Source: an uncultured delta proteobacterium
GTDB lineage: Bacteria; Myxococcota_A; UBA9160; SZUA-336
Direction: 5' to 3'
Length of the DNA stretch: 64,000 bases
NCBI GenBank assembly: GCA_963704165.1
Contig: CAVPHD010000001.1
Coordinates: forward strand, 64,001-128,000
Below, in pieces: positions 46,339 through 64,000 of this stretch; position 1 is the first letter of the stretch; every line of letters begins with the position of its first letter. The position numbers and the translations under genes are program-made. A model generated the notes under the pieces. That model was not told the origin of the DNA and did not search any database. It saw nothing but the letters and a program-made list of their open reading frames with translations.

Positions 46339-46812
46339 ATGCAGCTTCTCGCCCAGGAAGAGTACGGGCTGCGCTGCCTGGTCCAGGTGGCGCGCCAGCG
46401 TGGCTCGGATCCGCTGACGATCCCCGAGATCGCCTCGCGTGAGGGCATCTCCCCCGAGTACGCGGCCAAGCTGATGCGCGCGCTGCGCCAGACCGGGCTC
46501 GTGGTCAGCACGCGCGGTGCCGGCGGGGGCTATCACCTCGCGCGTCCGGCGCGCGAGATCACCGCCTGGCAGGTGATCGATGCGCTCGGCGGCTCGCTCT
46601 TCCCCGAGGAGTTCTGCGACTCCCACCCCGGACAGCTGCACGACTGCGTGCATTCGACCGGCTGCTCGCTTCGCGGACTCTGGAGCTCGGTCGAGAGCGC
46701 GATCCGCGAAATCCTGGAAGGCACGACCGTCGCCGATCTGGCTGGCGGCGATCGGGCACTGCACGCGATCGGCGCTCCCCCGCTTGCACCGAAGACGGAC
46801 CTGACGCGATGA
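46339..46812 (+). CDS. Rrf2-family transcriptional regulator (IscR/SufR-like)
   Basis: EEYGLR, wHTH with RG.GGGY.L; three C-terminal Cys; heads the suf operon. Confidence 0.9.
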
Positions 46813-48257
46813 GCGGCAATGCGGAGCTCGAAGCGCTCGCGAATCGCGAGTACCAGGCCGGCTTCACCACCGACGTCGAGTCCGAAACCGTCGCGCCGGG
46901 GCTAGATCCCGACGTGATCCGACGCATCTCGGAGAAGAAGGGCGAGCCACCCTGGCTGCTCGACTGGCGGCTGCGCGCCTTCGCCCGCTGGCTCGAGATG
47001 CGCGAGGAGGACGCGCGCTGGGCGAACGTCACGTTCCCGAAGATCGACTACCAGGCGATCAGCTACTACTCCGCGCCCAAACCACGCAAGAAGCTCGGCA
47101 GCATGGACGAGGTCGATCCGGAGATCCGCGCGACTTTCGAGAAACTCGGAATTCCACTCAGTGAGCAGAAGATGCTCTCCGGCGTCGCGGTCGATGCGGT
47201 CTTCGACTCCGTCTCCGTTGCCACGACGTTCCGCTCGAAGCTCGCCGAACTCGGAATCATCTTCTGCTCGTTCTCGGACGCGGTGAAGAGTCACCCGGAT
47301 CTCGTTCGTAAGTATCTCGGGTCGGTCGTTCCGTACGCCGACAACTACTTCGCGACGCTGAACTCGGCGGTATTCACGGATGGATCGTTCGTCTACATCC
47401 CGCCCGGCGTCCGCTGCCCGATGGAGCTCTCGACCTACTTCCGGATCAACGAGGCGAAGACCGGCCAGTTCGAGCGGACGCTGATCGTCGCCGACGAGGG
47501 CGCCTACGTCTCGTACCTCGAGGGCTGTACCGCGCCGATGCGCGACGAGAACCAGCTGCACGCCGCCGTCGTCGAGCTCGTCGCGCTCGAGCGCGCGACG
47601 ATCAAGTACTCGACGGTGCAGAACTGGTATCCGGGTGACCGTGAGGGCCGCGGCGGCATCTACAACTTCGTCACCAAGCGCGGCGCATGCCGTGGAAGGC
47701 GCTCGAAGATCAGCTGGACGCAGGTCGAGACGGGATCCGCGATCACCTGGAAGTACCCGAGCTGCATCCTTCAGGGCGAGGAATCGGTCGGCGAGTTCTA
47801 TTCGGTTGCCGTGACGAATCACCGTCAGCAAGCCGACACCGGCACGAAGATGATCCACATCGGAAAGAACACGACGAGTACGATCGTCTCGAAGGGCATC
47901 TCGTGCGGCCGCGGCCAGCAGACCTACCGCGGCCTGGTCGAGGTCCACCAGAAGGCGAAGGGCGCGCGCAATCACTCGCAGTGCGACTCCCTGTTGATCG
48001 GCGACCGTTGCGGCGCGCACACCTTTCCCTATCTGGACGTCCGCAACGCGAGCGCGCGCGTCGAGCACGAGGCCACGACGAGCAAGATCAGCGAGGACCA
48101 GCTCTTCTACTGCCGGCAGCGGGGACTCGGAACCGAGGACGCCGTCTCGATGATCGTGAACGGCTTCTGCAAAGAGGTCTTCCGCGAGCTTCCGATGGAG
48201 TTCGCGGTCGAGGCCTCGAAGCTGCTCTCGGTCACGCTCGAAGGCGCGGTCGGCTAG
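46809..48257 (+). CDS. sufB: Fe-S cluster assembly protein SufB
   Basis: [49 protein letters not shown]. Confidence 0.97.
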
Positions 48258-48270
48258 GCACGGAGGCTTC

Positions 48271-49035
48271 ATGCTCGAGATCCGGAATCTGCACGCCCGA
48301 GTCGCCGGAAAGGAGATCTTGAACGGTCTCGATCTGGTCGTACGCGCCGGCGAAGTCCACGCGATGATGGGCCCGAACGGATCGGGAAAGAGCACGCTCG
48401 CGAACGTGCTCGCGGGCCGTGAGGGCTACGAGGTCACGTCGGGAAGCGTGCTGTACCGAGGACGCGATCTGCTCGCGCTCTCGCCCGAAGAGCGCGCGCG
48501 CGAGGGCGTCTTTCTCGCGTTCCAGTACCCGGTCGAGATCCCCGGGGTGACCAACTCGTACTTCATGAAGGCCGCGACGAATGCGGTCCGCGTACATCGT
48601 GGTCTTCCCGAGCTCGATGCGATCGACTTCCTGACGCTCGTGAAGCAGACGATGAAGGCGCTCGAGATGGACGAGAAGTTCCTCTCGCGTTCGGTGAACG
48701 AGGGATTCTCCGGCGGCGAGAAGAAGCGAAACGAGATCCTCCAGATGCTTCTGCTCGAGCCGACGCTCGCCGTGCTCGACGAGACCGACTCCGGGCTCGA
48801 CATCGACGCGCTTCGGATCGTCGCCGACGGCGTGAACCGACTGCGCTCGAGAGAGCGCGCGGTGCTCGTGATCACGCACTACCAGCGGCTGCTCGACTAC
48901 CTCGTCCCCGACAAGACGCACGTGCTGATGGGCGGACGGATCGTGAAGTCGGGCGATCGCTCGCTGGCACTCGAGCTCGAGAAGCGCGGCTACGGCTGGA
49001 TCGAGGGCGAGCTCGCAAGGACCACGCCGACATGA
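48271..49035 (+). CDS. sufC: Fe-S cluster assembly ATPase SufC
   Basis: GPNGSGKST, FQYP.EIPG, GFSGGEKKR, LDETDSGLDID. Confidence 0.97.
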   Translation: MLEIRNLHARVAGKEILNGLDLVVRAGEVHAMMGPNGSGKSTLANVLAGREGYEVTSGSVLYRGRDLLALSPEERAREGVFLAFQYPVEIPGVTNSYFMKAATNAVRVHRGLPELDAIDFLTLVKQTMKALEMDEKFLSRSVNEGFSGGEKKRNEILQMLLLEPTLAVLDETDSGLDIDALRIVADGVNRLRSRERAVLVITHYQRLLDYLVPDKTHVLMGGRIVKSGDRSLALELEKRGYGWIEGELARTTPT

Positions 49036-50354
49036 GAGGCACGGCCGCCGAGCTCGCCTTCGCGCGCCACTTCGAGGCGCCGCGCGCAGAGCGCGAGGCG
49101 CGCGAGCCGGCCTGGCTCGGGCGATTCCGGGCCGAGGCATTCGGAGCATTCGAGGCGCAAGGGCTGCCGACGACCCGGCTCGAGGCCTGGCGCTTCACGT
49201 CGCTCGCCGATCTCGAGCCGCTCACGATCGGCGTCTCCGCGGATCGCGTCGCTTCGGAAACCGTGCTCGGACCCTCCTCGATCGAAGTCGGCCCTGCACA
49301 CCGGCTGGTGTTCGTGAACGGGCGGTATTCGTCGGCGCTCTCGGCGGTGTTCCCGGTCCCGGCGGGCTGCCGCGTCAGTCCGCTCTCGACGGTGCTGGCG
49401 ACCGATCCGGGCGCGGTCGAGCGCACGCTCGCGGACGCCGCGGACGCGAAGACGCGCCCGTTCGTGGCCCTGAACTCCGCGCTCTTCGACGACGGCGTCT
49501 TCGTCGAGCTGGCCGAAGGAGTGACGCTCGACCGGCCGGTGCATGCGATCTTCGTGCAGACCGGTGCGGGCGAGCCGATCGCCGCGCACGTGCGAACGCT
49601 GATCTCGGCAGCTGCGGGCAGCCGCGCGCTCGTCGTCGAGCACCACCACGGCGAAGCGCCCCGATCCGACGTGACGAACGCGGTGACGGAGATCCGCGTC
49701 GGCGAGGCGGCCACCGTCGATCACGTCGTCGTGCAGGAGCTACCCGACCGGAGCACGCTGTTCGCGGCCGTCATCTCGCGGCAAGACGCGGGGAGCCACC
49801 TCGGGCTGCACTCGCTCGCGCTAGGCGCTTCGCTCGCCCGCGTGGAGTTCGAGAGCCGGCTCGAAGGAGAAGGGGCGGAGCTCGACATGAACGGGCTCTA
49901 CCTCGGACGCGCGGCGCAACACATCGACCATCACACGACGATCGACCACGCCGTGGGGCGCACGACCAGCCGTGAGCTCTTCAAGGGCGTGCTCGACGAG
50001 CGCGCGCACGGAGTGTTCCACGGCCGGGTCCGCGTGCGGCCGGATGCCCAGAAGATCAGCGCCGATCAGACCAATCGCACGCTGCTCCTCTCCGATGCTG
50101 CGAAGATCAACAGCAAGCCGCAGCTCGAGATCCATGCCGACGACGTGAAATGCAGTCACGGCGCGACGATCGGCCAGCTCGACGATGCGCAGCTCTTCTA
50201 CCTGCGCGCGCGCGGCCTCGATCTGGAGGCAGCCCGCGCGCTGCTCACGGCCGCCTTCGCCAGCGAGGTGCTCGCGCGGCTGCCGTCGGAGACGCTGCGT
50301 ACGTCGGCCGAGAACGCGTTGCTCGCCTGGCTGCCGCGAGGCGGCACGTCGTGA
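49032..50354 (+). CDS. sufD: Fe-S cluster assembly protein SufD
   Basis: E.WRFT, KPQLEI.ADDVKCSHGATIG, LFYLRARG. Confidence 0.93.
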   Translation: MRGTAAELAFARHFEAPRAEREAREPAWLGRFRAEAFGAFEAQGLPTTRLEAWRFTSLADLEPLTIGVSADRVASETVLGPSSIEVGPAHRLVFVNGRYSSALSAVFPVPAGCRVSPLSTVLATDPGAVERTLADAADAKTRPFVALNSALFDDGVFVELAEGVTLDRPVHAIFVQTGAGEPIAAHVRTLISAAAGSRALVVEHHHGEAPRSDVTNAVTEIRVGEAATVDHVVVQELPDRSTLFAAVISRQDAGSHLGLHSLALGASLARVEFESRLEGEGAELDMNGLYLGRAAQHIDHHTTIDHAVGRTTSRELFKGVLDERAHGVFHGRVRVRPDAQKISADQTNRTLLLSDAAKINSKPQLEIHADDVKCSHGATIGQLDDAQLFYLRARGLDLEAARALLTAAFASEVLARLPSETLRTSAENALLAWLPRGGTS

Positions 50355-51604
50355 CGACCGCGGCGGAAACGTCCCCGACCCGTCGCACGCTCGACGTCGA
50401 AGCGCTGCGCAAGCAGTTTCCGATCCTCGCGCGGCAGGTGCACGGAAAGCCGCTCGTCTACCTGGACAGCGCGGCCTCGAGTCAGAAACCCGCGTGCGTG
50501 ATCGAGTCGATCGCCGACTACTACGGACGCTATCACTCGAACGTGCATCGGGGCGTGCACACGCTCTCCGAAGAGGCGACGAGCGCCTACGAGCGCGCGC
50601 GCGCAAAGGTGCAGCTCTTCCTTCGCGCGACCTCGCCACGCGAGATCGTCTTCGTGCGCGGAACGACCGAGGCGATCAACCTCGTCGCGCAGGCATGGGC
50701 GCGTCCGAGGCTCGTCCCGGGTGACGAGGTGCTCGTGACCGCACTCGAGCACCACTCGAATCTGGTGCCCTGGCAGATCGTCTGCGAACAAACGGGCGCG
50801 AAGCTCGTCGTCGCGCCAATCGACGAGCGCGGGGACGTGCCCCGCGAGGAGTACGTGCGGAAGTTGTCCAAGCGCACGCGCGTGGTCGCGCTCGCGCAGG
50901 TTTCGAACGCGCTCGGCACCGTCCTGCCGATCTCGGAGTTCTCGCGCCTCGCGAAACAGGTCGGAGCGACCGTGGTCGTCGACGGCGCCCAGGGTGTTCC
51001 GCACCTGCCCGTGGACGTCGGCGATCTCGGTTGCGACTTCTACGCGTTCTCGGGTCACAAGATGTACGCACCGACCGGGATCGGCGCCCTCTTCGGACGG
51101 CTCGATCTCCTCGACGAGATGGAGCCATGGCAGAGCGGCGGCTCGATGATCCGCAACGTGACGTTCGAGAAGACGACCTTCGCGCCTCCGCCCGAGCGTT
51201 TCGAGGCCGGCACTCCGAACATCGAGGGAGCGATCGGCCTCGGCGCCGCGATCGATTTCCTCGAACAGCTCGATCTCGAGGCCGTTCACGCGCACGAGGC
51301 GGATCTGGTCGAATACGCGAGCGCGAAGCTCGAGGCGATTCCGGGCGTTCGACTGATCGGCACCGCGCGCGACCGCGTGGGCCTCGTGTCGTTCGTCGTC
51401 GGAGACGTGCACGCTCACGACGTCGGCACGATCCTCGACGGCGAAGGCATCGCCGTGCGCGCGGGACACCACTGCGCACAGCCCGTGATGGATTACTTCG
51501 AGGTGCCCGCGACCGCGCGCGCCTCGTTCGCTGTCCACAACGGACGCGACGACGTCGACCGACTCGTTGCCGGCGTGCAGCGGGTGCTGGAGATCTTCGC
51601 CTGA
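50351..51604 (+). CDS. sufS: Cysteine desulfurase/selenocysteine lyase SufS
   Basis: YLDSAA, NVHRG, EHHSN, DGAQ, SGHK, RAGHHCA. Confidence 0.95.
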   Translation: MTTAAETSPTRRTLDVEALRKQFPILARQVHGKPLVYLDSAASSQKPACVIESIADYYGRYHSNVHRGVHTLSEEATSAYERARAKVQLFLRATSPREIVFVRGTTEAINLVAQAWARPRLVPGDEVLVTALEHHSNLVPWQIVCEQTGAKLVVAPIDERGDVPREEYVRKLSKRTRVVALAQVSNALGTVLPISEFSRLAKQVGATVVVDGAQGVPHLPVDVGDLGCDFYAFSGHKMYAPTGIGALFGRLDLLDEMEPWQSGGSMIRNVTFEKTTFAPPPERFEAGTPNIEGAIGLGAAIDFLEQLDLEAVHAHEADLVEYASAKLEAIPGVRLIGTARDRVGLVSFVVGDVHAHDVGTILDGEGIAVRAGHHCAQPVMDYFEVPATARASFAVHNGRDDVDRLVAGVQRVLEIFA

Positions 51605-52056
51605 TGTCGGACCTGCGCGACCTGTACCAGGAGGTCATCCTGGATCACACGAAGCACCCGCGGAACTTCGGGACGCTCGAGCGCGCGACGCATCGCGCCC
51701 AAGGGCACAACCCGCTGTGCGGCGATCAGCTCGCGCTCTTCGTCGAGGTCGAAGACGGGCGGCTGCGCGACGTTCGCTTCGCCGGCAAGGGCTGTGCGAT
51801 CTCGACGGCCTCGGCCTCCTTGTTGACCGAGGCCGTGAAGGGCAAGAGCACCGACGAAGCACACGAGCTTTTCGCGCGCTTCCACCGGGTGGTGACGACG
51901 CCCTCCGACGAGCCCGTGGACGTGTCCCTGCTCGGCAAGCTCGCGGTACTCGCGGGCGTGCGCGAGTTCCCGATGCGCGTGAAGTGCGCGAGTCTGGCGT
52001 GGCACACGCTCGAGGCGGCACTCGCCGGTCGAGCCGACCCGGTGACAACGGAGTAG
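51604..52056 (+). CDS. sufU: SUF system NifU-family scaffold/sulfur-transfer protein
   Basis: LYQEVILDH, NPLCGD, GCAIS.AS, RVKCA.L.W. Confidence 0.93.
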   Translation: MSDLRDLYQEVILDHTKHPRNFGTLERATHRAQGHNPLCGDQLALFVEVEDGRLRDVRFAGKGCAISTASASLLTEAVKGKSTDEAHELFARFHRVVTTPSDEPVDVSLLGKLAVLAGVREFPMRVKCASLAWHTLEAALAGRADPVTTE

Positions 52057-52059
52057 CAG

Positions 52060-52398
52060 ATGAGTACCGATGCGAGTTGCAATGTGAAGCCGGGACCCGA
52101 GAGCCTGCGCGAGAGCGTGATCGAGGTGCTGCGCAGCATCTTCGACCCGGAAATTCCGGTGAACATCTACGAGCTCGGCTTGGTCTACGGCGTCGACGTC
52201 GACGAAGAGAACCACGTTCGCGTGCGCATGACGCTCACGTCGCCGATGTGTCCGGTCGCCGAGAGCATGCCGCCCGAGGTCGAGCAGAAGATCCGTCAGA
52301 TTCCCGGCGTCGCGCACGCCGAGGTCGACCTCACCTGGGAGCCGACCTGGAACCCGTCGATGATGTCGGAGGCGGCGAAGCTTCAGCTCGGGTTCTGA
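52060..52398 (+). CDS. sufT: SufT/PaaD-like (DUF59) Fe-S maturation protein
   Basis: DPEIPVNIYELGL, MTLTSP.CP, MSEAAKL.LG. Confidence 0.85.
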   Translation: MSTDASCNVKPGPESLRESVIEVLRSIFDPEIPVNIYELGLVYGVDVDEENHVRVRMTLTSPMCPVAESMPPEVEQKIRQIPGVAHAEVDLTWEPTWNPSMMSEAAKLQLGF

Positions 52399-52405
52399 GC
52401 CGAGT

Positions 52406-52861
52406 ATGAGTCCGACGGTCGCTTGGCGTGCGCTCCGTGTCGCCGGCTTCGTGTGCCTCACCGGGTGTCTCGACTTCCACTCTCGTGCCGTCGAGGAGAC
52501 TCGCACAGGACTTCTCGGGCTCGAGGGTCGGGAGCTGCGCGACTGTCTCGGCATCGTCTCGGATTTCGAGATCGACGGCGACATCGAGCGCCAAACCTAT
52601 CGCTTCGAGCGCGATGATCCATCCGACGACGGCGCCGGCGCGGGCGCCCTCGGCGGCGTCGCGATCGGCGGCCGTCCGGAGGTCGATCGACGTCACGACC
52701 CGCACGGCTTCCCGATCGACCGGCCAGATCAGTCGTACTGTCAGCTCGACTTCGAGCTCACGCGGGGCCGCGTCACGCGAGTTCTCGCGCACGGTCGGAC
52801 ACGCGAGGGCATGAACGCGGACGCGACCTGCATGCTTCGCGCGCAGCGTTGCCTTCCGTAG
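52406..52861 (+). CDS. Hypothetical lipoprotein
   Basis: LTGC lipobox; CLG...C...C..C pattern; 7 nt after sufT. Confidence 0.55.
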   Translation: MSPTVAWRALRVAGFVCLTGCLDFHSRAVEETRTGLLGLEGRELRDCLGIVSDFEIDGDIERQTYRFERDDPSDDGAGAGALGGVAIGGRPEVDRRHDPHGFPIDRPDQSYCQLDFELTRGRVTRVLAHGRTREGMNADATCMLRAQRCLP

Positions 52862-53066: not shown

Positions 53067-54092
53067 GTGATATCGGGGGGTTCCCCCCCGGGGAGAGCTG
53101 TCTTGGGGATCCGCGTCTCTGCGCGGAACTGGATCGCGTGCTGCGCGTGGGCCGCCGTCTGCCTGCTCGCTGCTGGAGAGGCTCGCGCGCTCGGCACGCC
53201 GGCCGGCACTCCGATCGCGAACACGGCGACCGTCAGCTACGAGATCGCCGCGAGCGCGTACACGCAGAGCGCGACGGCGGTGTTCGCGGTCGACGAGCGG
53301 ATCGACGTCGTCGTCACCTGGCAGGATGCGGCGGCGGTGCTGGTCGCACCCGCGGACCTCGACCGCGTGATCACGTTCCTGATCACGAACACGGGCAACG
53401 GCGCCGAGACCTTCTCGCTCGCCGTCGATCCGCTGCTCGCGGGCGACCAGTTCGATCCGGTGAACGCGCGCGTGTACATCGACGCGAACGACTCGACGAC
53501 CTACGAGGCGGGCGTCGATCCCCTGTACCAGCCGGGCGTGAATGATCCGCTGCTCGCCGCCGACGCCGCGCGACTCGTCTTCGTGCTCGCCGACATTCCC
53601 GCTGCCGCCCTGAACGGAGAGCGAGGCGACGCGGAGCTCCGGGCGACTTCGCTCACGGGCAGCGTCACCGGCGCGGTGGTTCCGGGTGCGGGCGATCTCG
53701 GGACCGACGCGGTGATCGGCGGCGGCACGAGCGCGATGAGCGGAAGCTACCTGGTCGCCGACCTGATCGCCGCGATCGCCAAGTCGGCCGTGGTCTCCGA
53801 CACCGGCGGCGGTAGCACGCCCGCGCCGGGAGCGACGATCACCTACACGCTGCTCGTCACGACGAGCGGAACGGGCACGGTCGACAACCTGGTCATCACC
53901 GATCCGCTGCCCCCGTTCACCAGCTACGTCCCCGGCTCGCTCACGCTGAACGGCTCCGCGCAGAGCGATGCCGCGGACCTCGATGCCGGCGACGTGGGCG
54001 GCACGACACCCAATCAAGTCACCGTCGCGCTCGGGAACGTGGCCGGCGGCTCTCTCCCCCAAACCATCACGTTCGCAGTCACGATCGATTAG
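53067..54092 (+). CDS. Secreted DUF11-type protein A (putative pilin/minor subunit)
   Basis: Signal ending ARA; mature N-terminus GTPAGTPIANTATVSY; C-terminal IAKS...PGATITYTL...VITDPLP...ITFAVTID; start codon uncertain. Confidence 0.8.
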   Translation: MISGGSPPGRAVLGIRVSARNWIACCAWAAVCLLAAGEARALGTPAGTPIANTATVSYEIAASAYTQSATAVFAVDERIDVVVTWQDAAAVLVAPADLDRVITFLITNTGNGAETFSLAVDPLLAGDQFDPVNARVYIDANDSTTYEAGVDPLYQPGVNDPLLAADAARLVFVLADIPAAALNGERGDAELRATSLTGSVTGAVVPGAGDLGTDAVIGGGTSAMSGSYLVADLIAAIAKSAVVSDTGGGSTPAPGATITYTLLVTTSGTGTVDNLVITDPLPPFTSYVPGSLTLNGSAQSDAADLDAGDVGGTTPNQVTVALGNVAGGSLPQTITFAVTID

Positions 54093-54103
54093 GAGGGAAC
54101 GAA

Positions 54104-54598
54104 ATGAAGAACGCAATCGCACTGGCACTGACCGTATTGCTCCCAGCGTGGAGCGCGCATGCGATCGAGAGCGCGGGGAATCCCGCGGTCGAGATCGCGA
54201 TCACCGCAGAGGTCGAAGTCACGATCAAGACCGAGGACGGACGCGAAGAAGTGAAGCGCGTACCCGCAGCGAAGGTACCACCGGGTGAGGCGGTGATCTT
54301 CACGTTGCACGCGAAGAACAACGGCGAGAAGCCGGCGAACGACGTGATCGTGACCGACCCGATCCCCGAGCACATGGACTACGTGGACGGATCGGTGAGC
54401 GAGGGCGGAGCGCGAGTGACGTTCTCCGTCGATGGCGGAAAGAGCTTCGCGGCCAAGGAGAAGCTGAAGGTTCGCGGTGAGGACGGCGCGCTTCGTGCGG
54501 CCCTCGCTACCGACTTCACGCACATCCGCTGGCAGCTCGAGACGCCGCTTGCGCCCGGTGAAGCTCGAGAGGTGAGCTTCCGCGCACGCGTGGAGTGA
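54104..54598 (+). CDS. Secreted small DUF11-type protein B
   Basis: AGGAGG RBS; signal ending AHA; PGE.VIFTL..KN.G...VTDPIP...LAPGE...VSFRARVE. Confidence 0.85.
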   Translation: MKNAIALALTVLLPAWSAHAIESAGNPAVEIAITAEVEVTIKTEDGREEVKRVPAAKVPPGEAVIFTLHAKNNGEKPANDVIVTDPIPEHMDYVDGSVSEGGARVTFSVDGGKSFAAKEKLKVRGEDGALRAALATDFTHIRWQLETPLAPGEAREVSFRARVE

Positions 54599-54698
54599 GA
54601 GAAGAGATTCCCCCCCCTTGAAAGGGTGGAAGCGTGAGACACACGCTCAAGTGTCTATTCGAGTTGAGTTGAGTTGGACATACAGCAAGGAGAAGGCA

Positions 54699-55763
54699 AT
54701 GTTGAGGCATGACTTGAAACGACTGGCAAGTGCGCTTGCCACCGCTGCGCTCTTGTGGAGCACGGCGGGGACGGCATCGGCGGTCGGCGCCGACGCTGGC
54801 ACCGTCATCTCGAACACCGCCACCGTGGACTACAGCGTGAACGCCGTAGTCCAGCCCACGGTGGCCAGCGTAGCCGTCGACTTCGTCGTCGATCGGCTGA
54901 TCGACCTGACGGTGACGGCCGTCCCGGTGACCTACGTCGCCGTGACGCCGAGCTCCGACGGGGCGTTCCTGTTCACACTGACCAACACCAGCAACGCCGA
55001 GCTCGGATTCGACCTCAGCGCGGCGAACAACGCAACGGACCCCTTCGGCGGCACGGACAACTTCGATCCGAGCGCGCTGACCACGGTCGTGGACGCGGGC
55101 GTGCTCGGGACCTACGAGCCGCTCGTCGACGTCGCCACGACCGTCGATTCGCTCGCAGAGGACGGCTCGGTGGGCGTGTGGGTGGTCGCGACGATCCCCG
55201 GTGGCCAGGCCAACGCGGACATCGCGGCGGTCACGCTGACTGCGACGGCGCGCGAGACGACGGCCAACGGCGGCGGCGCCGTGGTCGAGCAGGCCAATCC
55301 GGAGGATCCGGCAACCATGGAGACCGTGTTCGGCGACGGCGCGGGTGACACCGACGCCGCGAATGCGGCCGACTTCTCGGACAGCGGCGCGTTCCAGGTG
55401 GAGTCCGCCGACGTGACGATCACGAAGACCGAGACGCTGATCAGCGACCCGGTGAATGGCGCCGCGCCCAACGCTCGCCACATCCCGGGTGCGATCGTCG
55501 AGTACGTGGTGACGGTGACCAATGACGCCGCTTCCGCGCTCTCGGCGACGACGCTGACCATCAGCGACGTGCTTCCCGGTGACGTGACGTTCGAGCCGGA
55601 TACCTATGGCGTCGGATTCGGCATCGACCTCGACTCGGTCGCGCAGTCGAATGCCGCGGATCTCGACCAGGGGTCCGAGGCGGCGGGCACCGTGACGGTG
55701 ACCGTGCCGTCGCTCGCGCCGGGGGCTTCCGCGGTGATCACCTTCCGGGTGTCCGTGGACTAG
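54699..55763 (+). CDS. Secreted DUF11-type protein C (putative major pilin)
   Basis: AAGGAG RBS and ATG at 54699; signal ending ASA; GADAGTVISNTATVDY; C-terminal ITKT...PGAIVEY...ISDVLP...LAPGASAVITFRVSVD; paralogous to A. Confidence 0.85.
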   Translation: MLRHDLKRLASALATAALLWSTAGTASAVGADAGTVISNTATVDYSVNAVVQPTVASVAVDFVVDRLIDLTVTAVPVTYVAVTPSSDGAFLFTLTNTSNAELGFDLSAANNATDPFGGTDNFDPSALTTVVDAGVLGTYEPLVDVATTVDSLAEDGSVGVWVVATIPGGQANADIAAVTLTATARETTANGGGAVVEQANPEDPATMETVFGDGAGDTDAANAADFSDSGAFQVESADVTITKTETLISDPVNGAAPNARHIPGAIVEYVVTVTNDAASALSATTLTISDVLPGDVTFEPDTYGVGFGIDLDSVAQSNAADLDQGSEAAGTVTVTVPSLAPGASAVITFRVSVD

Positions 55764-55778
55764 CGCTCGAATCGCCAA

Positions 55779-58700
55779 GTGGTGGGTCCCCTCCCCCGAA
55801 GGTCGCGGCACGTCGAGTGCCCGCGCGCCGGCTCACGCGCCGGTGTGACGGGAGACTTGCGTCCGCGAGCCGCGACGGAGAACCCACCGGACCGCACCCG
55901 TGCGGTTCGCAAGTCGTGCCTCAACGAGCCGGCTGGGTCGGGAATTCCCCGATTCAGCCGGCTCTGCGAGGTGCTGGCGCTTCTGCTGCTCGCGTTCGCC
56001 CTGCTTCCGTCGAACGCACGCGCGCAGACACCGGTGGGGACTGCGATTCCCAATACCGGTTACGCGACCTACGACATCGGGAGCACGGTCGGAATCGTCC
56101 GTCCGTCGAACACGCTCGTGATCACGACCGCGGTCGTGAGCTCCGGTTCGAGCCTGGAGTTCATGCGCTACGCACCCGGAGCACCGGGTTCGACCAGTTA
56201 CGGTGTCACCGCCACCGCTTGCTTCAGTGGCGGCAGTTTCAATCCGCTGCCGGCGCCCAACGCGTACGGTGGCGGCGCGATCAATCTGGCGAGCGTCGAG
56301 CTGATCCCGACGCCTGCCTATCATCCCGGCGAGCCGATCTTCGTGCGGCTCGTCGACGCGGACCAGAATCGGAACTCGACCCTGGTCGAATCCGTTCTCG
56401 TCGCGCTCTCCGCGCCCGGCGTCGCCGATCTCGAGCAGCTTCGGCTCTTCGAAACCGGCGTCGCGACGGGCGTCTTCGTCGGCTACGTGCCGTCCGCGGC
56501 ACCCCCGGCACCCGCCAACGACTGCGTGCTCGCCGCCCCTTCGGGTCAGACGGTTCTCGGCAATTACGTCGACGCATTCGATGCGAGTGACTCGGACTCC
56601 GACACCGCATGGATCGACCCCGAGAGCCGGGTCTTCGACAGCGCGACCGGTGCTCCGATCGACTTCGCGGTCGTCACCCTGATCGACGAGATCACCGGGC
56701 TCCCCGCGACGGGGATCCTGGGAGACGATGGCGTGAGCACGTTCCCCGCCACCCTGACGACCGGTGGCTCGGTCACCGATGGCGGCGGGCAGATCTACAA
56801 CTTCGGTCCGGGCGGCTATCGCTTCCCGGTGGTTCCCGTCGGCAGCTACCGATTGCAGGTCGCGCCGCCCTCGACGTACGGCTTTCCGAGCGCGGTCCCC
56901 GATGTCGTGCTGCAGGCGCTTCCGGGCGCGCCGTTCGCGCTCGTCGTCGGTTCGCGCGGAGAGGTCTTCGACGTCATCGCGGGCCCGACCTTCGAGATCG
57001 ATCTGCCGCTCGACGCGGCATCGTCCGCGGGCTTCATCTCGATCCGCGCCAGCCGCGACGTCGTTTCGATCGGCGAGCACTTCCAGTTCGACGTCCGCGT
57101 CGAGAATCCCGGCGTGGCGGACGCTCCGCTCGGGGTCGAAGTGACCGTGGTGCTTCCGCCCGGGGTCAGGTTCACGCCGCAGTCGGTCCGGATCGACGAC
57201 CAGATCCAGCCCGACCCGCTGATCTCGCCCGACGGGCGCACGCTCACGTGGACGCTCCCTGCGACCCTTGCCCCGGTCGTGACGCACATCCGTTTCACCG
57301 TGAAGGTCGAGCCGAGCGTTCGAGCGGGACTCGTCCGCACGACCGCACGCGCGGAGGCGCTCGGCGGATCGATCACCGAGGATGCGGTCGCGACGGTACG
57401 CGTCGAGGAGGATCTCGGCGCGAACAGCGCCTACGTGGTGGGTCGCGTGTCGGCCGGCCACTGCGACACGGACGACTTCGCGGGTGAAGCCGTCCCGGGG
57501 GTACGCGTCTACCTCGAAGACGGAACCTACTCCGTCACCGACGCGAACGGCTACTACCACTTCGCAGGACTCCGAAGTGGCGCCCACGTCGTACAGATGG
57601 ACGTGCAGAGCCTGCCCGGGTTCTACGAGCCGCTCCCGTGCGCCAACGCCGAGGGGCATGCCTTCGCGGGCCGGCCGTTCTCGCAGTTCGTGGACGTCCA
57701 AGGTGGAACGCTGTGGCGCAGCGACTTCCGCGTGCAGCTGCGACCGCGTCGCGAGGGCGGAATCAGTCAGCGACTCGAGAGCCAGCTCGAGGGCGACACG
57801 ATCCGCTATCAGCTCGCGCTGCGCGGCAACGGCGTCGCGGTGCGAAACGCGCGCGCGGTGGTGATGCTGCCCGAAGGCGTGGAGTTCGTGCCGGGCAGCG
57901 CGCGCAACGCGGGTGCTCCGATCGCAGATCCCGAGACCAAGAACGGGGTGGTCACCTTCCGACTCGGAGAGCTGAGCTCGGAGGAGTGGTCGATGGACCT
58001 CGCGCTCGACGCGATCGTCGACGGGCGGGCCGAGCGCGAGCTCGAGACATCGTCCGTGGTCATGTTCGAGACACCGGTCGAGAAGCTCGCCAAGACACCC
58101 GCCGCGAAGACGCGCCTCCACGGCGAGTCGAGCTCGGGCAGCGGACTCAAGCTCGTCGAGACGCTGGGGCTTCGACCGGGAGAGGAGTGGCAGACGAAGA
58201 CCGCGCCGGAAATCGATGCCGCGCCGCCCAAACCCGGCGTCTACAACAAGATCTGGCTCGAGAAGGCGACGCCCGGACTCGAATGGCTCTCACCCGAACC
58301 CGGATTCGCGGCGGCGATCGCGAGCGTGAACATCGCGATCAAGCACGCGCCCGGAACGACCATCGAGCTGGTACAGAACGGGGTGGCCGTACCGAAGTTC
58401 AACTTCGAAGGTGCGTTCTCGAACACCGGCAAGACCGTATCGCTCTCGCGTTGGCGCGGTGTGGACCTGGTCGATGGCGAGAACAGCTTCGTCGCACGCG
58501 AGCTCGACGCTTCGGGGAACGAGATCGCGCGACTGGATCGCTCGCTCCACTACGCCGGACCGCCGTTCCGCGCCGTGCTCGTGCCCGAGCTGTCGCGGCT
58601 CGTCGCCGACGGGCGAACGATCCCCGTGATCGCGGTGCGCTTCACCGACGAGGACGAGAAGCCCGCACGCGAGGGACAGGTCGGCACGTACGAGATCGAC

Positions 58701-61481
58701 GCGCCGCATCGACCGAATCGCGACGCGTCGGCCGGGGAGCTGCGACGCCAGGCGGGGCTCGCGCCCGAGTCGCCGAGCTACGTGATCGGCCGCGACGGTG
58801 TGGCTCGGATCGAGCTCGCGCCCACGACCCGTTCGGGGCGCGTCGGCCTTCGCTTCGCGTTGGCGGGACGCCAGCGCAAAGAGCTGCACCCCTGGCTCGA
58901 GGCGGAGGCTCGCGATTGGGTGCTCGTCGGGCTGACGGGCGGCACGCTTCTGCACAGCTCCGTCTCCGAACACACCGAGAGCCTCGTGCCGTCCGACGTC
59001 GAGGACGGCTACGACCTCGATCGCGGCACCACCGTCTTCGCGAAGGGCCGGATCAAGGGCTCGTGGCTGCTCACCGCCGCCTACGATTCGCAGCGGGAAT
59101 CGCGCGAGTCCTCGAGCGACCTCGATCGGGCCGCGCTCGAGGGGGGCCTCGATCCGAATCGCTATTACACGCTCTACGGTGACGCGACGACGCAGGGCTA
59201 CGAGGCCCCGAGCCAGCGCAAGCTCTACCTGAAGCTCGAACGCAAACAGTTCTACGCGCTCTTCGGTGACTTCCAGACCGGCCTCACCGTCACCGAGCTC
59301 TCGCGCTACAGCCGCGCGCTGAACGGATTCCACACCGAGTACGACGGCGACCACGTGTCCGTGAATGCCTTCGGCACCGACACGAGCCAGGCCTTCGTTC
59401 GCGACCAGATACGGGGTGACGGCACGTCGGGCCTGTACCGACTCTCGCGCTCCGGGATCGTGCTGAACAGCGAACGCGTCACGATCGAGATCCGGGATCG
59501 TTTCCACGGTGAGCAGGTGATCTCTACGGAGGGCCAGACGCGCTGGACCGACTACAACATCGACTACACCTCGGGAACGATCTTCTTCAAGCGTCCGATC
59601 CCGAGCACCGGCGAGGGCTTCAATCCCGTGTACATCGTCGTCGAGTACGAGTCCGACGACGACTCCGACCAGGAGCTGAACGGTGGCGGTCGCGCAGCCG
59701 TGAAGCTCCTGGACGACAACGTGGAGCTCGGGGCGTCGCTGATCCACGAAGGCACGGTGGGACAGACGTCGAGCCTGTACGGCAGCGACTTGCGGATCGA
59801 TCTCGACGGCGCGACGAGCCTGCGCGCCGAGTTCGCGCAGACGCGCTCCTCGCTGCTCGGCTCGAATGCCGACTCGAGCGGCGCGGCCTGGCTCGCCGAG
59901 CTGTGGCGACGCGACAAGGATCTCGACTCGCGAATGTACTGGCGTGAGCAGCGCCCGGGCTTCGGCCTCGGTCAGCAGAGCTCGAGCGAAACGAACATGC
60001 AGCAGCTCGGAATCGACGCACGCTACCGTTGGAGCGACACGCTCGCGCTCTCCGGCGAAGTGTTTCGCCAGGTCGATGTCGCCTCCGACGCGAGGCGCGA
60101 TCTCTTCGAGCTGCGCGCAGATCACCACGAAGGACCGTTCGGCGGTTACGGCGGCGTTCGCTTCGCGCACGACGTCTTCTCCGATGGAAGCAAGAGCTCG
60201 TCCCCACAGCTTCTCGGCGGCGGCAGCTACACGACCTACCAGAACCGGCTCAAGCTGCGCGCGGACTCGGAGATCACCGTCTCGGGCGACGAGAGCCTCG
60301 ACTTCCCGACGCGTTTCCTCGTCGGCGCCGATTTCCTGCTCCTGCCCGAGCTCACCGTCTTCGGCGAGGAGGAGCTCACGCTCGCGAGCGAACGGAGCAC
60401 GGCCTCGACGCGTGTCGGCCTTCGCACCAGCCCGTGGCGCGGCGGGCAGGCGACGGCCGCGATCGGCCAACGCAGTCAGCAGGACAGCGAGCGTCTCTTC
60501 GGAACGCTCGGACTGCTCCAGACCTATCAGCTGACCGACGCGCTCAGCTTCGACTTCGGGATCGACAACTCCGTGACGCTGAAGGGCGACGACCTGGCGC
60601 CGACGCAGGTCTCCCCGTTCGCGCCGGGACAGCCGGTCGCGAACGGCCTCTCGGGAAATCCGCAGGGAGACGACTTCACGTCGCTCTCCATCGGCACGAC
60701 GTACGCGCAGGACGTCTGGGCCGCGAACCTCCGCCTCGAGACGCGGTTCGGCCAGGTTCAAGACAAGTGGAGCATCACCGCCGGCGCCTATCGCGAGCTC
60801 GAGGCGGGAATCGGTGTCGCCGTCCGGGCGGAGTTCTTCGACTCCAGCGGCTCGAGCCCGTCGCTGACGACCGGACCCAGCTCGAGCACCGGACCGGTCT
60901 ACACCGCCGACGGCACGCTCCGTCCGAACACCGCATTCGACGGGATCGAATCGCTCGGCCGTCTGCAGCTGAGCGGCGTCTACCGACCGATCGGGAGCCG
61001 CTACACGCTGCTCGAGTCCCTCGAAATCCGCAGTGAGCGACTCGACTACGACGTCTTCCAGAGCCGCGCGACGCGGATCGTCAACAACATGAACCTGAAC
61101 GTGAAGCTCGACCGGAAGACCCAGGCCTCGCTGCAGTACGGCGCGAAGTACCTGTTCGAGCGTATCGACGGGTTGAACCTCGACGGCTACACCGACGTCA
61201 CCGGACTCGAGATCCGGCGCGATCTCTTCGGCAGCTGGGACATCGGCGGCCGCGTGGGAATGCGCCACTCCTGGACCGACGGCAACATCGAGGAGCTGTA
61301 CAGCGTCTCGCTCGGGTACGTGCTGATGAGGAACCTTTGGGTGAGCGCCGGCTACAACTGGGGTGGCTACAGCGATCGCGACTTCTCGGCGGGCAACTGG
61401 ACCACGCGCGGCCCGTTCGTCTCGTTCCGCTACAAGTTCGACCAGGAGACGGTCAAGGAGCTGCTCGACTGGGCGGAGTAG
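55779..61481 (+). CDS. Giant outer-membrane protein: Ig/DUF11/SdrD-like domains plus C-terminal beta-barrel (putative usher-like platform)
   Basis: Signal ending ARA, then QTPVGTAIPNTGYATY; internal DUF11-like and SdrD-B-like (PGVRVYLEDG...TDANG.YHF) domains; long amphipathic beta region ending FVSFRYKF; true start may be downstream (e.g. GTG 55971). Confidence 0.85.
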   Translation: MVGPLPRRSRHVECPRAGSRAGVTGDLRPRAATENPPDRTRAVRKSCLNEPAGSGIPRFSRLCEVLALLLLAFALLPSNARAQTPVGTAIPNTGYATYDIGSTVGIVRPSNTLVITTAVVSSGSSLEFMRYAPGAPGSTSYGVTATACFSGGSFNPLPAPNAYGGGAINLASVELIPTPAYHPGEPIFVRLVDADQNRNSTLVESVLVALSAPGVADLEQLRLFETGVATGVFVGYVPSAAPPAPANDCVLAAPSGQTVLGNYVDAFDASDSDSDTAWIDPESRVFDSATGAPIDFAVVTLIDEITGLPATGILGDDGVSTFPATLTTGGSVTDGGGQIYNFGPGGYRFPVVPVGSYRLQVAPPSTYGFPSAVPDVVLQALPGAPFALVVGSRGEVFDVIAGPTFEIDLPLDAASSAGFISIRASRDVVSIGEHFQFDVRVENPGVADAPLGVEVTVVLPPGVRFTPQSVRIDDQIQPDPLISPDGRTLTWTLPATLAPVVTHIRFTVKVEPSVRAGLVRTTARAEALGGSITEDAVATVRVEEDLGANSAYVVGRVSAGHCDTDDFAGEAVPGVRVYLEDGTYSVTDANGYYHFAGLRSGAHVVQMDVQSLPGFYEPLPCANAEGHAFAGRPFSQFVDVQGGTLWRSDFRVQLRPRREGGISQRLESQLEGDTIRYQLALRGNGVAVRNARAVVMLPEGVEFVPGSARNAGAPIADPETKNGVVTFRLGELSSEEWSMDLALDAIVDGRAERELETSSVVMFETPVEKLAKTPAAKTRLHGESSSGSGLKLVETLGLRPGEEWQTKTAPEIDAAPPKPGVYNKIWLEKATPGLEWLSPEPGFAAAIASVNIAIKHAPGTTIELVQNGVAVPKFNFEGAFSNTGKTVSLSRWRGVDLVDGENSFVARELDASGNEIARLDRSLHYAGPPFRAVLVPELSRLVADGRTIPVIAVRFTDEDEKPAREGQVGTYEIDAPHRPNRDASAGELRRQAGLAPESPSYVIGRDGVARIELAPTTRSGRVGLRFALAGRQRKELHPWLEAEARDWVLVGLTGGTLLHSSVSEHTESLVPSDVEDGYDLDRGTTVFAKGRIKGSWLLTAAYDSQRESRESSSDLDRAALEGGLDPNRYYTLYGDATTQGYEAPSQRKLYLKLERKQFYALFGDFQTGLTVTELSRYSRALNGFHTEYDGDHVSVNAFGTDTSQAFVRDQIRGDGTSGLYRLSRSGIVLNSERVTIEIRDRFHGEQVISTEGQTRWTDYNIDYTSGTIFFKRPIPSTGEGFNPVYIVVEYESDDDSDQELNGGGRAAVKLLDDNVELGASLIHEGTVGQTSSLYGSDLRIDLDGATSLRAEFAQTRSSLLGSNADSSGAAWLAELWRRDKDLDSRMYWREQRPGFGLGQQSSSETNMQQLGIDARYRWSDTLALSGEVFRQVDVASDARRDLFELRADHHEGPFGGYGGVRFAHDVFSDGSKSSSPQLLGGGSYTTYQNRLKLRADSEITVSGDESLDFPTRFLVGADFLLLPELTVFGEEELTLASERSTASTRVGLRTSPWRGGQATAAIGQRSQQDSERLFGTLGLLQTYQLTDALSFDFGIDNSVTLKGDDLAPTQVSPFAPGQPVANGLSGNPQGDDFTSLSIGTTYAQDVWAANLRLETRFGQVQDKWSITAGAYRELEAGIGVAVRAEFFDSSGSSPSLTTGPSSSTGPVYTADGTLRPNTAFDGIESLGRLQLSGVYRPIGSRYTLLESLEIRSERLDYDVFQSRATRIVNNMNLNVKLDRKTQASLQYGAKYLFERIDGLNLDGYTDVTGLEIRRDLFGSWDIGGRVGMRHSWTDGNIEELYSVSLGYVLMRNLWVSAGYNWGGYSDRDFSAGNWTTRGPFVSFRYKFDQETVKELLDWAE

Positions 61482-61499: not shown

Positions 61500-62207
61500 T
61501 CACGGGATCTTGAGGTTCGGGGCGTCACTCCGGATGTCGCGGACGGCTTCCATCAACATCTCTTTCAGCAGATCGGGGTACATGAAGTCGGACTTCATTA
61601 CGTAGATCCAACTGAGATTTCCGTCGGCTCGCCTGTAGTTCCTCTCCCAGAGCGTCGCATTGGTCGCCGAGTCGCGAAGGCTGAAGGTCACGTCGAGCTC
61701 GTTGTCCGCAGAGGTCGCGGGAAGACCGATGAACCACAGCAGGGGTCCATAGACCGAGAGTCCGTACGAGAAGATCTTCCCGCTGAAGTCGGTCGATCGG
61801 ATCGTCCCTTGAAGAACCAGTTCTCCGTCGGTCGCACGATGCGAGAAGAACACCTCCTTGAAGACGTTGGCGGAGTTCAGCTCCTCGGCCGCGGCCTTTG
61901 CGATGTCCTCGTTCGGGCGCCACATCCACAGGCCGCTGGTCATGTGCATCTGCGCGCCTTCGGGCGTCTTGTAGTCAGCCCATCCGAACGGCATCAACGG
62001 GATCGCGTACATCAACACCCGGTTCCGATTCTCGTTGACCCTCGTATCCATGAACGGAGGAACGGAGACCGACTTGTTCACGAGAACCGGACTGGTGGAG
62101 ATCGACTCGGCTCGATAGCTCCATGACTTCTGAGTGGCACAACCCAATGAGGTCACCAGCAGAATTCCGATCGTGACACGCGCACATGACTTGGCTGAAA
62201 ACAGCAT
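61500..62207 (-). CDS. Hypothetical lipoprotein
   Basis: ATG at 62207 after GAGG; SLGC lipobox; visibly less GC-biased than its neighbours. Confidence 0.65.
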   Translation of the reverse strand: MLFSAKSCARVTIGILLVTSLGCATQKSWSYRAESISTSPVLVNKSVSVPPFMDTRVNENRNRVLMYAIPLMPFGWADYKTPEGAQMHMTSGLWMWRPNEDIAKAAAEELNSANVFKEVFFSHRATDGELVLQGTIRSTDFSGKIFSYGLSVYGPLLWFIGLPATSADNELDVTFSLRDSATNATLWERNYRRADGNLSWIYVMKSDFMYPDLLKEMLMEAVRDIRSDAPNLKIP

Positions 62208-62248: not shown

Positions 62249-64000
62249 CTATGCGAAAGAACTCGCGAACCCCGCACGGGCGAGCTCCGCGCGCAGCGCA
62301 CCGCCGGGCGTGAGCAGCCGGATCAGCGCGCGCACGGCCGGTCGTTGCAGGCGGCTCTTCGGCACGACGAAGTCGTAGTGCTCGCTGCGAAGCGGCCGAA
62401 ACCGGAGTCCGGACTCCCGCGCGATCGTCTCGATCGTCACGCCCCAGTCCGCGCGACCTTGCGCGATGGCCGCCGCAACCGCGTGATGCGAGCGAGGCTC
62501 GTACGCGTAACCGTCGGGGCGGCGAGAGCCGAGCAGGCCGTCGATCAGCACGCGTGTGCCACTGCCGCGGTTGCGGTTCACCATGCGCAGACTCGCATCG
62601 GCGACGAGCGCCTCGGTCGGACGCCGCTCGTCGTCGCGCGTGACCACGCCTTGCATGCGCAGGTAGCCCGGAACGAGCGCGAGCGTATCGTCGAGAAAGG
62701 GCGTGTTGTAGCAGTCGGACTTCGGATCGAGCAGGTGGGCGGGCGCGACGTCGCACTCGCCGCGCCGCGCCGCTTCGACCCCGCCGAGGGATCCGACCGC
62801 GAGCAGCTTCACCGTGAAGCCCTCCGCGAGCAGTGCGCGCGCGATCAGATCGAGCCCGGTGCAGTGGCTGCCGATCACGACCAGATCCGCCGGCGCGAGC
62901 GTGGGGCCGAGCAGCGTGACCTCGACCTCGGCGCCCGCTTCGACGATCTCGAGATTCCGCTCCAATCGCACGAAGCCATCGGCACGGCTCCAGGTCGTCA
63001 CGCTGCCGCTGCCCTTCCCCATCGGATACGCGCCGAGCCCGCCATCGGCTCCACGGACGAGACCGACGAGCAGATACTCGAGTCGTCCCCGTTCGGTGAG
63101 GGTGCGCAGCGCGAGATTCGCCTTCACGGTTTCGCGTTCGAGCTCCGGCGTGCCCGCGAGCCTGCGCAGAACCGGCGCGACGAACTCGTGAAACGTGAAG
63201 ACCGCCGAGGTGGGAAATCCGGGCAGGATCACGACGGGCTTTCCGCGCTGCGCCGCGAGGCAGATCGGTTTGCCGGGCTTCAGCGCGACGCCGTGGACGA
63301 GAATGCCGGGCTCGAGTCCCGCGACGACCCGGTAGGAGAGATCGCCTTCCCCCTTCGAGGTTCCTCCCGAAAGCACGACGGCGTCGCACTCCGCGAGTCC
63401 GCGGTCGAGCGCGCGCCGCAACGCCGCCTCCTCGTCGCGAAACGCGCCGAAGAAGACCGGCTCGCCGCCGAGCTCGCGGACGGCATCTGCGATCATGCGG
63501 CCGTTCGAATCGAAGACCAGTCCGGGCCGCATCGGCTCGCCCGGCGCGATGATCTCGTCGCCGGTGGAGATCACCGCGACGCGCGGCTTGCGCACCACGT
63601 CGATGCGGCAGATGCCGATCGCCGCGAGCACACCCGTCTCGCGCGAAGAGAGTCGCGTGCCTGCGAAGAGCACCGTTTCGCCGAGGCCGATGTCCGTTCC
63701 CGCGAACGCCACCGCAGCGCCGGGCACGCGTGCCGCGCGTACGACGACCATCCTCCCGCCATCCTCGATGTCGGTCAGCTCGACGGGCACGACGGCATCG
63801 GCGCCGCGCGGAAGCATGCCGCCGGTCGCGATCGAAGTCGCCGTTCCCGGATCGACGCTGAGTACGGGAGTCACGCCGGTCGGGATCGTCTCGTCGTTCA
63901 ATCGCAAGCGCACCGGTTCGAGCTCGCTCGCACCGAACGTGTCCTCGGCGCGGATCGCGAAGCCGTCCATGTTCGAACGGTCGAAGCTCGGCACGTCGAC
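62249..64000 (-). CDS. moeA: Molybdopterin molybdotransferase MoeA fused to a C-terminal periplasmic-binding-protein-like domain (5' end outside window)
   Basis: P.FDRS.MDGFA, IATGG.LP.GADAVV, STGDE, SGGTS.G.GD, KPGKP, LPGFP; C-terminal GSH...GS.GG...NR..GSGTR. Confidence 0.9.
   Translation of the reverse strand, partial: VDVPSFDRSNMDGFAIRAEDTFGASELEPVRLRLNDETIPTGVTPVLSVDPGTATSIATGGMLPRGADAVVPVELTDIEDGGRMVVVRAARVPGAAVAFAGTDIGLGETVLFAGTRLSSRETGVLAAIGICRIDVVRKPRVAVISTGDEIIAPGEPMRPGLVFDSNGRMIADAVRELGGEPVFFGAFRDEEAALRRALDRGLAECDAVVLSGGTSKGEGDLSYRVVAGLEPGILVHGVALKPGKPICLAAQRGKPVVILPGFPTSAVFTFHEFVAPVLRRLAGTPELERETVKANLALRTLTERGRLEYLLVGLVRGADGGLGAYPMGKGSGSVTTWSRADGFVRLERNLEIVEAGAEVEVTLLGPTLAPADLVVIGSHCTGLDLIARALLAEGFTVKLLAVGSLGGVEAARRGECDVAPAHLLDPKSDCYNTPFLDDTLALVPGYLRMQGVVTRDDERRPTEALVADASLRMVNRNRGSGTRVLIDGLLGSRRPDGYAYEPRSHHAVAAAIAQGRADWGVTIETIARESGLRFRPLRSEHYDFVVPKSRLQRPAVRALIRLLTPGGALRAELARAGFASSFA

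Follow-up and report, generated by a model that had tools for sequence, protein, structure and literature searches.

We analysed a 64,000-nucleotide stretch of DNA from an uncultured delta proteobacterium (assembly GCA_963704165.1, contig CAVPHD010000001.1, positions 64,001 to 128,000 of the forward strand), hereafter the window, in which four adjoining open reading frames (ORFs) on the plus strand (53067-61481), lettered A to D, encode the predicted parts of a self-crosslinking surface fibre. The product of gene A (53067..54092; 341 aa in the ORF list, start codon uncertain) comprises a signal peptide, a donor hairpin (53193..53294) that maps to positions 91-102 of the canonical CLIPPER domain, a middle immunoglobulin (Ig)-like domain and a truncated CLIPPER acceptor (53769..54089). 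The same layout recurs in gene C (54699..55763, 354 aa), whose hairpin (54783..54896) corresponds to canonical positions 86-102 and whose acceptor (55404..55760) lacks the last two strands. Gene B (54104..54598, 164 aa) encodes a secreted, DUF11-like protein consisting of an acceptor only, without the reactive Lys. Gene D (55779..61481, 1900 aa) encodes a signal peptide, an N-terminal donor hairpin (56025..56129), Ig and CarboxypepD_reg domains, one complete internal DUF11 domain (57021..57413) and a predicted C-terminal outer-membrane barrel. Read by eye, each of the four products starts like a signal peptide, and A, B and C terminate on a beta-strand without a sorting signal. Gene C starts at ATG 54699 with AAGGAG upstream, and the 100-base gap before it leads to a strong ribosome-binding site of its own. 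Promoter and terminator scans gave results at or below chance.

All four products match PF01345 (DUF11) above its cut-off of 24.6 bits (A 27.5, over profile positions 5-93 of 114; B 42.3; C 24.8; D 26.2), and A, B and D also exceed the TIGR01451 cut-off of 24, with C under it (20). DUF11 has been renamed CLIPPER, and its crystal structure contains an intramolecular Lys715-Asn806 bond beside Asp748 (PMC12617251, in the text available; PDB 9IFR). The Lys-Asn chemistry that the original prediction had guessed is therefore already established for this family, in cis. From 200 complete CLIPPER domains, sampled from 518 in long proteins, we built a canonical profile of length 124 with the triad at K6, D40 and N96. 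Measured against this profile, the acceptors of A and C and the last domain of P0121, a natural fusion described below, stop at position 87 of 124, in A and C at the stop codon itself. The contiguous one-chain order K...D...N is absent from A and C, in which the Asn lies about 200 residues upstream. The end point is exact: 242 of 253 relatives stop five residues past the same Phe, and coverage in alignment A3 falls from 114 to 3 rows after the terminal strand. Matches to hidden Markov models (HMMs) of both hairpin and acceptor were found in 27/27 A homologs. By these sequence comparisons, the acceptors of A and C stop exactly where the Asn hairpin should start, and the two missing strands sit at the N-terminus. 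An Asn element displaced to the N-terminus had been predicted, and that part stands; the single strand then envisaged is replaced by a two-strand hairpin of about 35 residues. Likewise, the Lys-Asn triad holds and the proposed first-to-last-strand bond does not, as the domain is of the CnaA type, in which the first strand is linked to the penultimate one (PMC12617251, available text).

The seven triad codons are in frame, with the residues and contexts originally described: AAC at 53220 (Asn52), AAG at 53781 (Lys239) and GAT at 53901 (Asp279) in A, AAC at 54813 (Asn39), AAG at 55425 (Lys243) and GAC at 55566 (Asp290) in C, and AAT at 56052 (Asn92) in D. In an alignment of C-type proteins (121 rows, query included) Lys is present in 121/121, Asp in 120/121 and Asn in 117/121, the remaining four being gaps. 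At genome loci, counting intact ORFs only and leaving out fragments and frameshifted copies, A keeps its Asn in 26/27, Lys in 27/27 and Asp in 27/27, C keeps each of the three in 34/34, and the Asn of D occurs in 31/31. Failure of these residues to be conserved had been named beforehand as a possible refutation; in a pooled set of 259 relatives (280-460 aa) all three occur together in 242. This conservation is far above that of neighbouring Lys, Asn and Asp positions, and the triad residues are the most conserved positions of their families. In both profile and alignment comparison they occupy the columns of the crystallised CLIPPER triad. MAFFT shifted the Lys of A by five columns because of an insert, and the same Lys is invariant in alignment A2.

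The genes also divide into donors and acceptors. In D the Asn hairpin stands at the mature N-terminus, and a terminal acceptor is absent. A triad in cis is present in the internal domain of D in 24 of 31 homologs; both Lys and Asn are missing from the remaining seven, as they are from the D of the window (I422, V457, T521). Over its last 860 residues (1040-1900) D is similar to Atlas clusters that carry the name 'outer membrane protein' (score 0.97), and a count of hydrophobic alternation did not separate this putative barrel from the Ig part (3.3-4.3 versus 3.5-3.6 strands per 100 residues). In B the acceptor fold is present, with no hairpin (0/36) and neither Lys nor Asn: its Lys column reads Ala in 24, Val in 11 and Ser in 1, with Lys in 0/36, and its Asp column holds Asp in 12/36. 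Lys32 of B (17/36) was considered as a reactive Lys and rejected, the canonical column being 35. B is likely to be a non-covalent holder, or chaperone, of donor hairpins.

A further gene, E, is found at many loci and combines a variable N-terminal part with a C-terminal truncated acceptor. The N-terminal parts include P-domain, SdrD_B, DUF3344, GEVED and extra complete DUF11 repeats. Across 13 E-type proteins, 12 from loci plus the host genome's own, the acceptor is present in 13/13 and the hairpin in 0/13; a long ORF at one locus (L044) was left out of this set as D-like. The host's own E (G000:C4:141515-143506, minus strand; L046:5516-7507) has 663 aa, a signal peptide, K515 and D561. It has no Pfam match, was missed by the PF01345 genome search and by the canonical HMM, and was found only by a search with a relative. 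We consider it a likely tip adhesin. A family-2 glycosyltransferase gene and RmuC lie near it on the opposite strand.

In this arrangement A is likely the minor or adaptor subunit, C the major shaft subunit and D the base anchor, so that the fibre would be anchored on the predicted outer-membrane barrel of D and probably capped by E, an acceptor-only adhesin. The middle domain of C (window 54894-55403) has invariant N96 and N99, and its Asp-rich loops (FGGxDNFD, FxDGxGDxD) are reminiscent of calcium-binding ones. A 174-aa relative of C, P0139 (71% identity), has hairpin and acceptor, with neither the middle domain nor, apparently, the Lys strand; an internal deletion or an artefact of assembly could account for it.

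We examined closure of the split domain in structure models. The AlphaFold (AF2) model of the C monomer (mean predicted local distance difference test, pLDDT, 97; predicted template modelling score, pTM, 0.84) places Ig domains at 40-207 and 208-326 of the mature chain. Its acceptor aligns with known structures over 74-102 residues only (best Z 9.8), and the alignment halts before the Asn strand of solved CnaA domains, covering 182-680 of GBS104, whose triad Asn is Asn692 (PMC12617251, Table 1, as available). 9IFR is not among the top 50 structural matches listed for the C monomer, Foldseek returned only generic tandem-Ig matches such as integrins, and a PDB sequence search with C, P0121 and alignment A1 gave no relative. 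Whole-chain matches of the C monomer are tandem Ig arrays (root-mean-square deviation, rmsd, 6.6-11 Å), a weak hint that the modelled C is extended.

The natural fusion P0121 restores the domain within one chain. This protein of 696 residues joins two C-type units in tandem; acceptor 1 continues directly into hairpin 2, and K, D and N fall in the canonical columns. The modelled piece was unit 1 together with hairpin 2, which lets two hairpins compete for one acceptor. In this model acceptor 1 and hairpin 2 together (residues 214-369) align with 9IFR along 121 of 123 residues (Z 12.4, rmsd 2.4) and also match the pilin CnaA domains of BcpA, EbpB and RrgB (Z 13-14). Matches to the same chains are shorter for the C monomer than for the P0121 junction (Sgo0707 312-421 versus 312-456; Cnm 172-282 versus 172-322). 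Provided that the numbering of 9IFR starts from a 19-residue pOPINF tag, a length that we assume, the start of the P0121 alignment puts the conserved Lys on Lys715. The expression vector of 9IFR was pOPINF (PMC12617251, available text). Thus, in the model, the downstream hairpin and not the subunit's own completes acceptor 1 into a CnaA-like fold, a match that comes from the model of a C relative and not of C. This occurred although the alignment was about 113 sequences deep at hairpin 1 and 1-3 at hairpin 2. Both hairpins form continuous strands by DSSP, a pattern that does not separate free from inserted hairpins.

These models bear on whether the domain closes within or between subunits. 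In a circularly permuted domain closed in cis, the acceptor of a subunit would be filled by the hairpin of the same chain, the middle domain would be an insertion, and an ordinary intramolecular bond would form in monomers or closed dimers. The high pLDDT of the C monomer, hairpin included, and its pTM of 0.84 suit such closure; CnaA folds tolerate domain inserts (PMC12617251, available text), and AlphaFold predicts a self-complemented 'closed' form of TafA (PMC11821415, available text). Against it, the linkers are 2-5 residues long, the whole-chain matches of C hint at an extended shape, and the P0121 model leaves the cis hairpin, with its deep alignment, unused. The displaced hairpin 1 of that model still has a pLDDT of 73-96 while the groove is occupied, so high hairpin confidence is not evidence of cis closure and that argument is weakened. 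Closure in cis would also leave the donor-only D (Asn in 31/31) and the acceptor-only E (13/13) unexplained: a base with only a donor and a cap with only an acceptor are pointless if subunits self-close, and donor and acceptor genes make sense only in trans. We therefore regard closure in cis as improbable. A donor-hairpin polymer that is purely non-covalent, or only slowly or partly crosslinked, seems to us very improbable. It has precedents in BsaA N35A oligomers, which lack the bond and remain resistant to sodium dodecyl sulfate (SDS) unless heated (bioRxiv 10.1101/2024.11.04.621531, available text), and in certain DUF11 domains that have no isopeptide bond (PMC12617251, available text). 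However, Lys, Asp and Asn are kept jointly, B never has the Lys, and the internal domain of D drops Lys and Asn together, which argues that selection acts on the reactive triad.

A third alternative accepts the covalent bond and limits its reach: a defined D-C-A-E stalk with one or few copies of each part would be a modular fibrillar adhesin assembled from separate genes. Each gene is single-copy, and E-type proteins often bring complete DUF11 stalk repeats of their own, as such a stalk would have it. We nevertheless find it unlikely, as C carries both halves of the domain and has its own strong ribosome-binding site after the 100-base gap. Moreover, a C-type hairpin fits a C-type acceptor in P0121, so nothing visible blocks C-C repeats.

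The reading that we favour is a head-to-tail pilus of the order D > C(n) > A > E, formed by hairpin complementation, locked by Lys-Asn bonds and with B holding the hairpins, to which we assign a probability of about 0.72. All parts would be exported by Sec, and B, without a reactive Lys, would keep the donor hairpins non-covalently until assembly. The hairpin of D would then enter the first C, that of each C would enter the following C or A, and E would take up the final hairpin in its C-terminal acceptor. Once Lys, Asn and Asp are buried, an amide would form and NH3 would be released, as happens in CLIPPER. D may in addition serve as the export pore. The function would be adhesion, with the variable N-terminal part of E as the binding tip. 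The inter-subunit bond of the original prediction is thus supported by the split domain, the P0121 fusion model and the donor-only and acceptor-only genes; the bond itself, a long polymer as opposed to a short stalk, and the side-chain geometry in a dimer are inferred. That prediction contained the split triad; the tip-like gene E, the inactive B, the DUF11/CLIPPER structure and the BsaA precedent were not part of it.

Several observations weigh against the pilus so described. The match of the hairpin to the canonical strand is weak per protein (E-value, tested alone, 0.05 for A and 0.14 for C); the hairpin is the best-matching window in 21/28 A rows and 69/135 C rows, and it lies outside the top three for D. 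The D hairpin is divergent, an HMM derived from C hairpins scoring at least 8 bits in 12/31 homologs and -1.6 in the D of the window, and the D barrel is predicted from Atlas cluster names only. E is unlinked to the A-D cluster in the host genome, where it lies on another contig (C4), and A is missing from 7 of 41 loci, where B-C-D stand without it. In the C monomer a pLDDT of 94-97 across the hairpin would, by itself, suit closure in cis. P0121 is a single sequence, and its hairpin 2 is covalently adjacent to acceptor 1 and hence the favoured competitor.

The cluster is conserved across several diderm phyla. A-B-C-D occur in this order at 27 of 41 loci, two of them with apparent frameshifts; besides the seven loci without A (L008, L012, L013, L017, L018, L023 and L024), the remainder are contig ends or weak matches. 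An optional adaptor role for A would fit two of the A-less loci, L023 and L024, whose E acceptor strongly resembles that of C (113-127 bits), although L032 blurs this pattern by having both A and a C-like E. At L040, L041 and L042 copies of the cluster are in pieces, probably through sequencing frameshifts. The loci span Myxococcota, alpha-, beta- and gamma-proteobacteria, Spirochaetales, Desulfobacterales and Nitrospirota, and cultured hosts include Sphingomonas spermidinifaciens (L031) and Qipengyuania sp. (L038). The closest relatives of the host genome are Myxococcota or Deltaproteobacteria, and of 151 sampled genomes of its phylum 6, host included, have a full-length or long match to C, so the system is patchy there. 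The wider family of 'DUF11 hypothetical proteins' is large, with 909 clusters at 50% identity (E-value up to 1e-10) and one Atlas cluster of 4792 members.

An enzyme-free fibre in a Gram-negative envelope had been proposed, and the setting agrees: the host genome encodes Omp85 and LpxC, which show a diderm, and no sortase (PF04203) was found in this genome, which is 84% complete. Upstream of the cluster lie an Rrf2 regulator followed by an ordinary SUF Fe-S set (46339-52398, plus strand; SufB, SufC-type ABC, SufD, class-V aminotransferase, FeS_assembly_P) and a gene for a ChaN-type haem-uptake protein (43886-44902, minus strand). Small lipoprotein-like ORFs without Pfam match flank it on either side (52406-52861, plus; 61500-61955, minus), and a MoeA fused to a PBP-like domain is encoded at 62249-64000 (minus strand).

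The system resembles chaperone-usher pili in logic and BsaA in chemistry, and is a member of neither family. With CLIPPER/DUF11 domains (PF01345, TIGR01451, 9IFR), which occur in diderms, it shares the Pfam family, the Lys-Asp-Asn columns and the modelled completed fold (Z 12.4). As published, however, CLIPPER bonds are intramolecular and belong to monomeric fibrillar-adhesin stalks, whereas here the domain is split between termini and genes; in the main text of that paper, so far as available, the terms 'donor strand' and 'multimer' are absent (PMC12617251). The DUF11 'grappling hook' of Litorilinea is likewise a monomeric protein, of 49 repeats. RrgA Jo-In (PDB 5MKC) and Tag/Catcher are engineered split CnaA-type pairs that religate, whereas the present pair would be natural and self-repeating. 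The C acceptor aligns to 5MKC with Z 7.1, which is background level.

BsaA of Clostridium perfringens, a TasA-family protein, assembles by 'donor-strand exchange and lock' (bioRxiv 10.1101/2024.11.04.621531, available text) and shares with the predicted fibre an N-terminal Asn given to a neighbour's Lys, an acid catalyst in the acceptor and covalent growth without an enzyme. It differs in being Gram-positive and encoded in a SipW operon, with an N-E-K triad (Glu catalyst) and a single donor strand, compared with the DUF11 fold, Asp catalyst, two-strand hairpin, diderm host and predicted outer-membrane barrel found here; no TasA-type Pfam match occurs among A-D. In chaperone-usher pili (type 1, P) an N-terminal donor completes the neighbour's incomplete Ig fold, as is predicted here, and their clusters also encode a tip adhesin, an adaptor, a shaft, a small periplasmic partner and a large outer-membrane protein (PMC13721041, available text). 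Those pili are non-covalent. Here D itself bears a donor and would therefore have a covalent link to the fibre. Among A-D no match to the PapD or PapC families was found (Pfam and NCBIfam, E-value 0.1), the rest of the genome not having been searched for them. Type V pili are built from a lipoprotein precursor with a C-terminal donor strand, whereas the donor here is N-terminal and, by eye, no Cys stands at the predicted cleavage sites of A-D. Sortase pili need a sortase and an LPXTG signal, neither of which was found here (in the 84% genome and at the C-termini of A, B and C, respectively). Two other isopeptide-linked filaments have no known sortase: the archaeal thread Saci_0406, with donor strands and a bond from the N-terminal amine to an Asn of subunit n+2 (PMC9715654, available text), and the Bacillus A-ENA sporesilk, with helical hairpins (PMC13111695, available text). 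Neither these nor BsaA come from a diderm or are DUF11-built. The available text on tafi makes no mention of isopeptides (PMC11821415), and our literature search, mostly without subscription papers and supplements, found no description of the operon.

Taken together, the feature is real, and its predicted fibres would be of a donor-strand, isopeptide-locked type, a kind undescribed for diderms in the literature that we found. A 2026 review of bacterial surfaces mentions isopeptide crosslinking of pili, in the text available, for monoderm sortase systems only (PMC13721041). At somewhat less than even odds, these genes may represent a new and widespread class of diderm pilus, in which the D barrel exports the subunits and is itself bound covalently to the fibre, a catalytically dead acceptor (B) serves as chaperone, tip adhesins are swappable, the isopeptide shaft is a single molecule made without an enzyme, and natural Tag/Catcher pairs have distinct specificities. 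The present locus contributes a natural fusion test (P0121) and an unlinked, likely tip gene, E. The 35-residue hairpin and the 120-residue acceptor also make a candidate protein-ligation pair and covalent-fibre material. For diderms, a covalent pilus built without sortase would be a further class of assembly. It would raise the question of how a self-reacting subunit is kept in check while periplasmic and made to polymerise at the outer membrane, and it would suggest what the many 'DUF11 hypothetical proteins' do.

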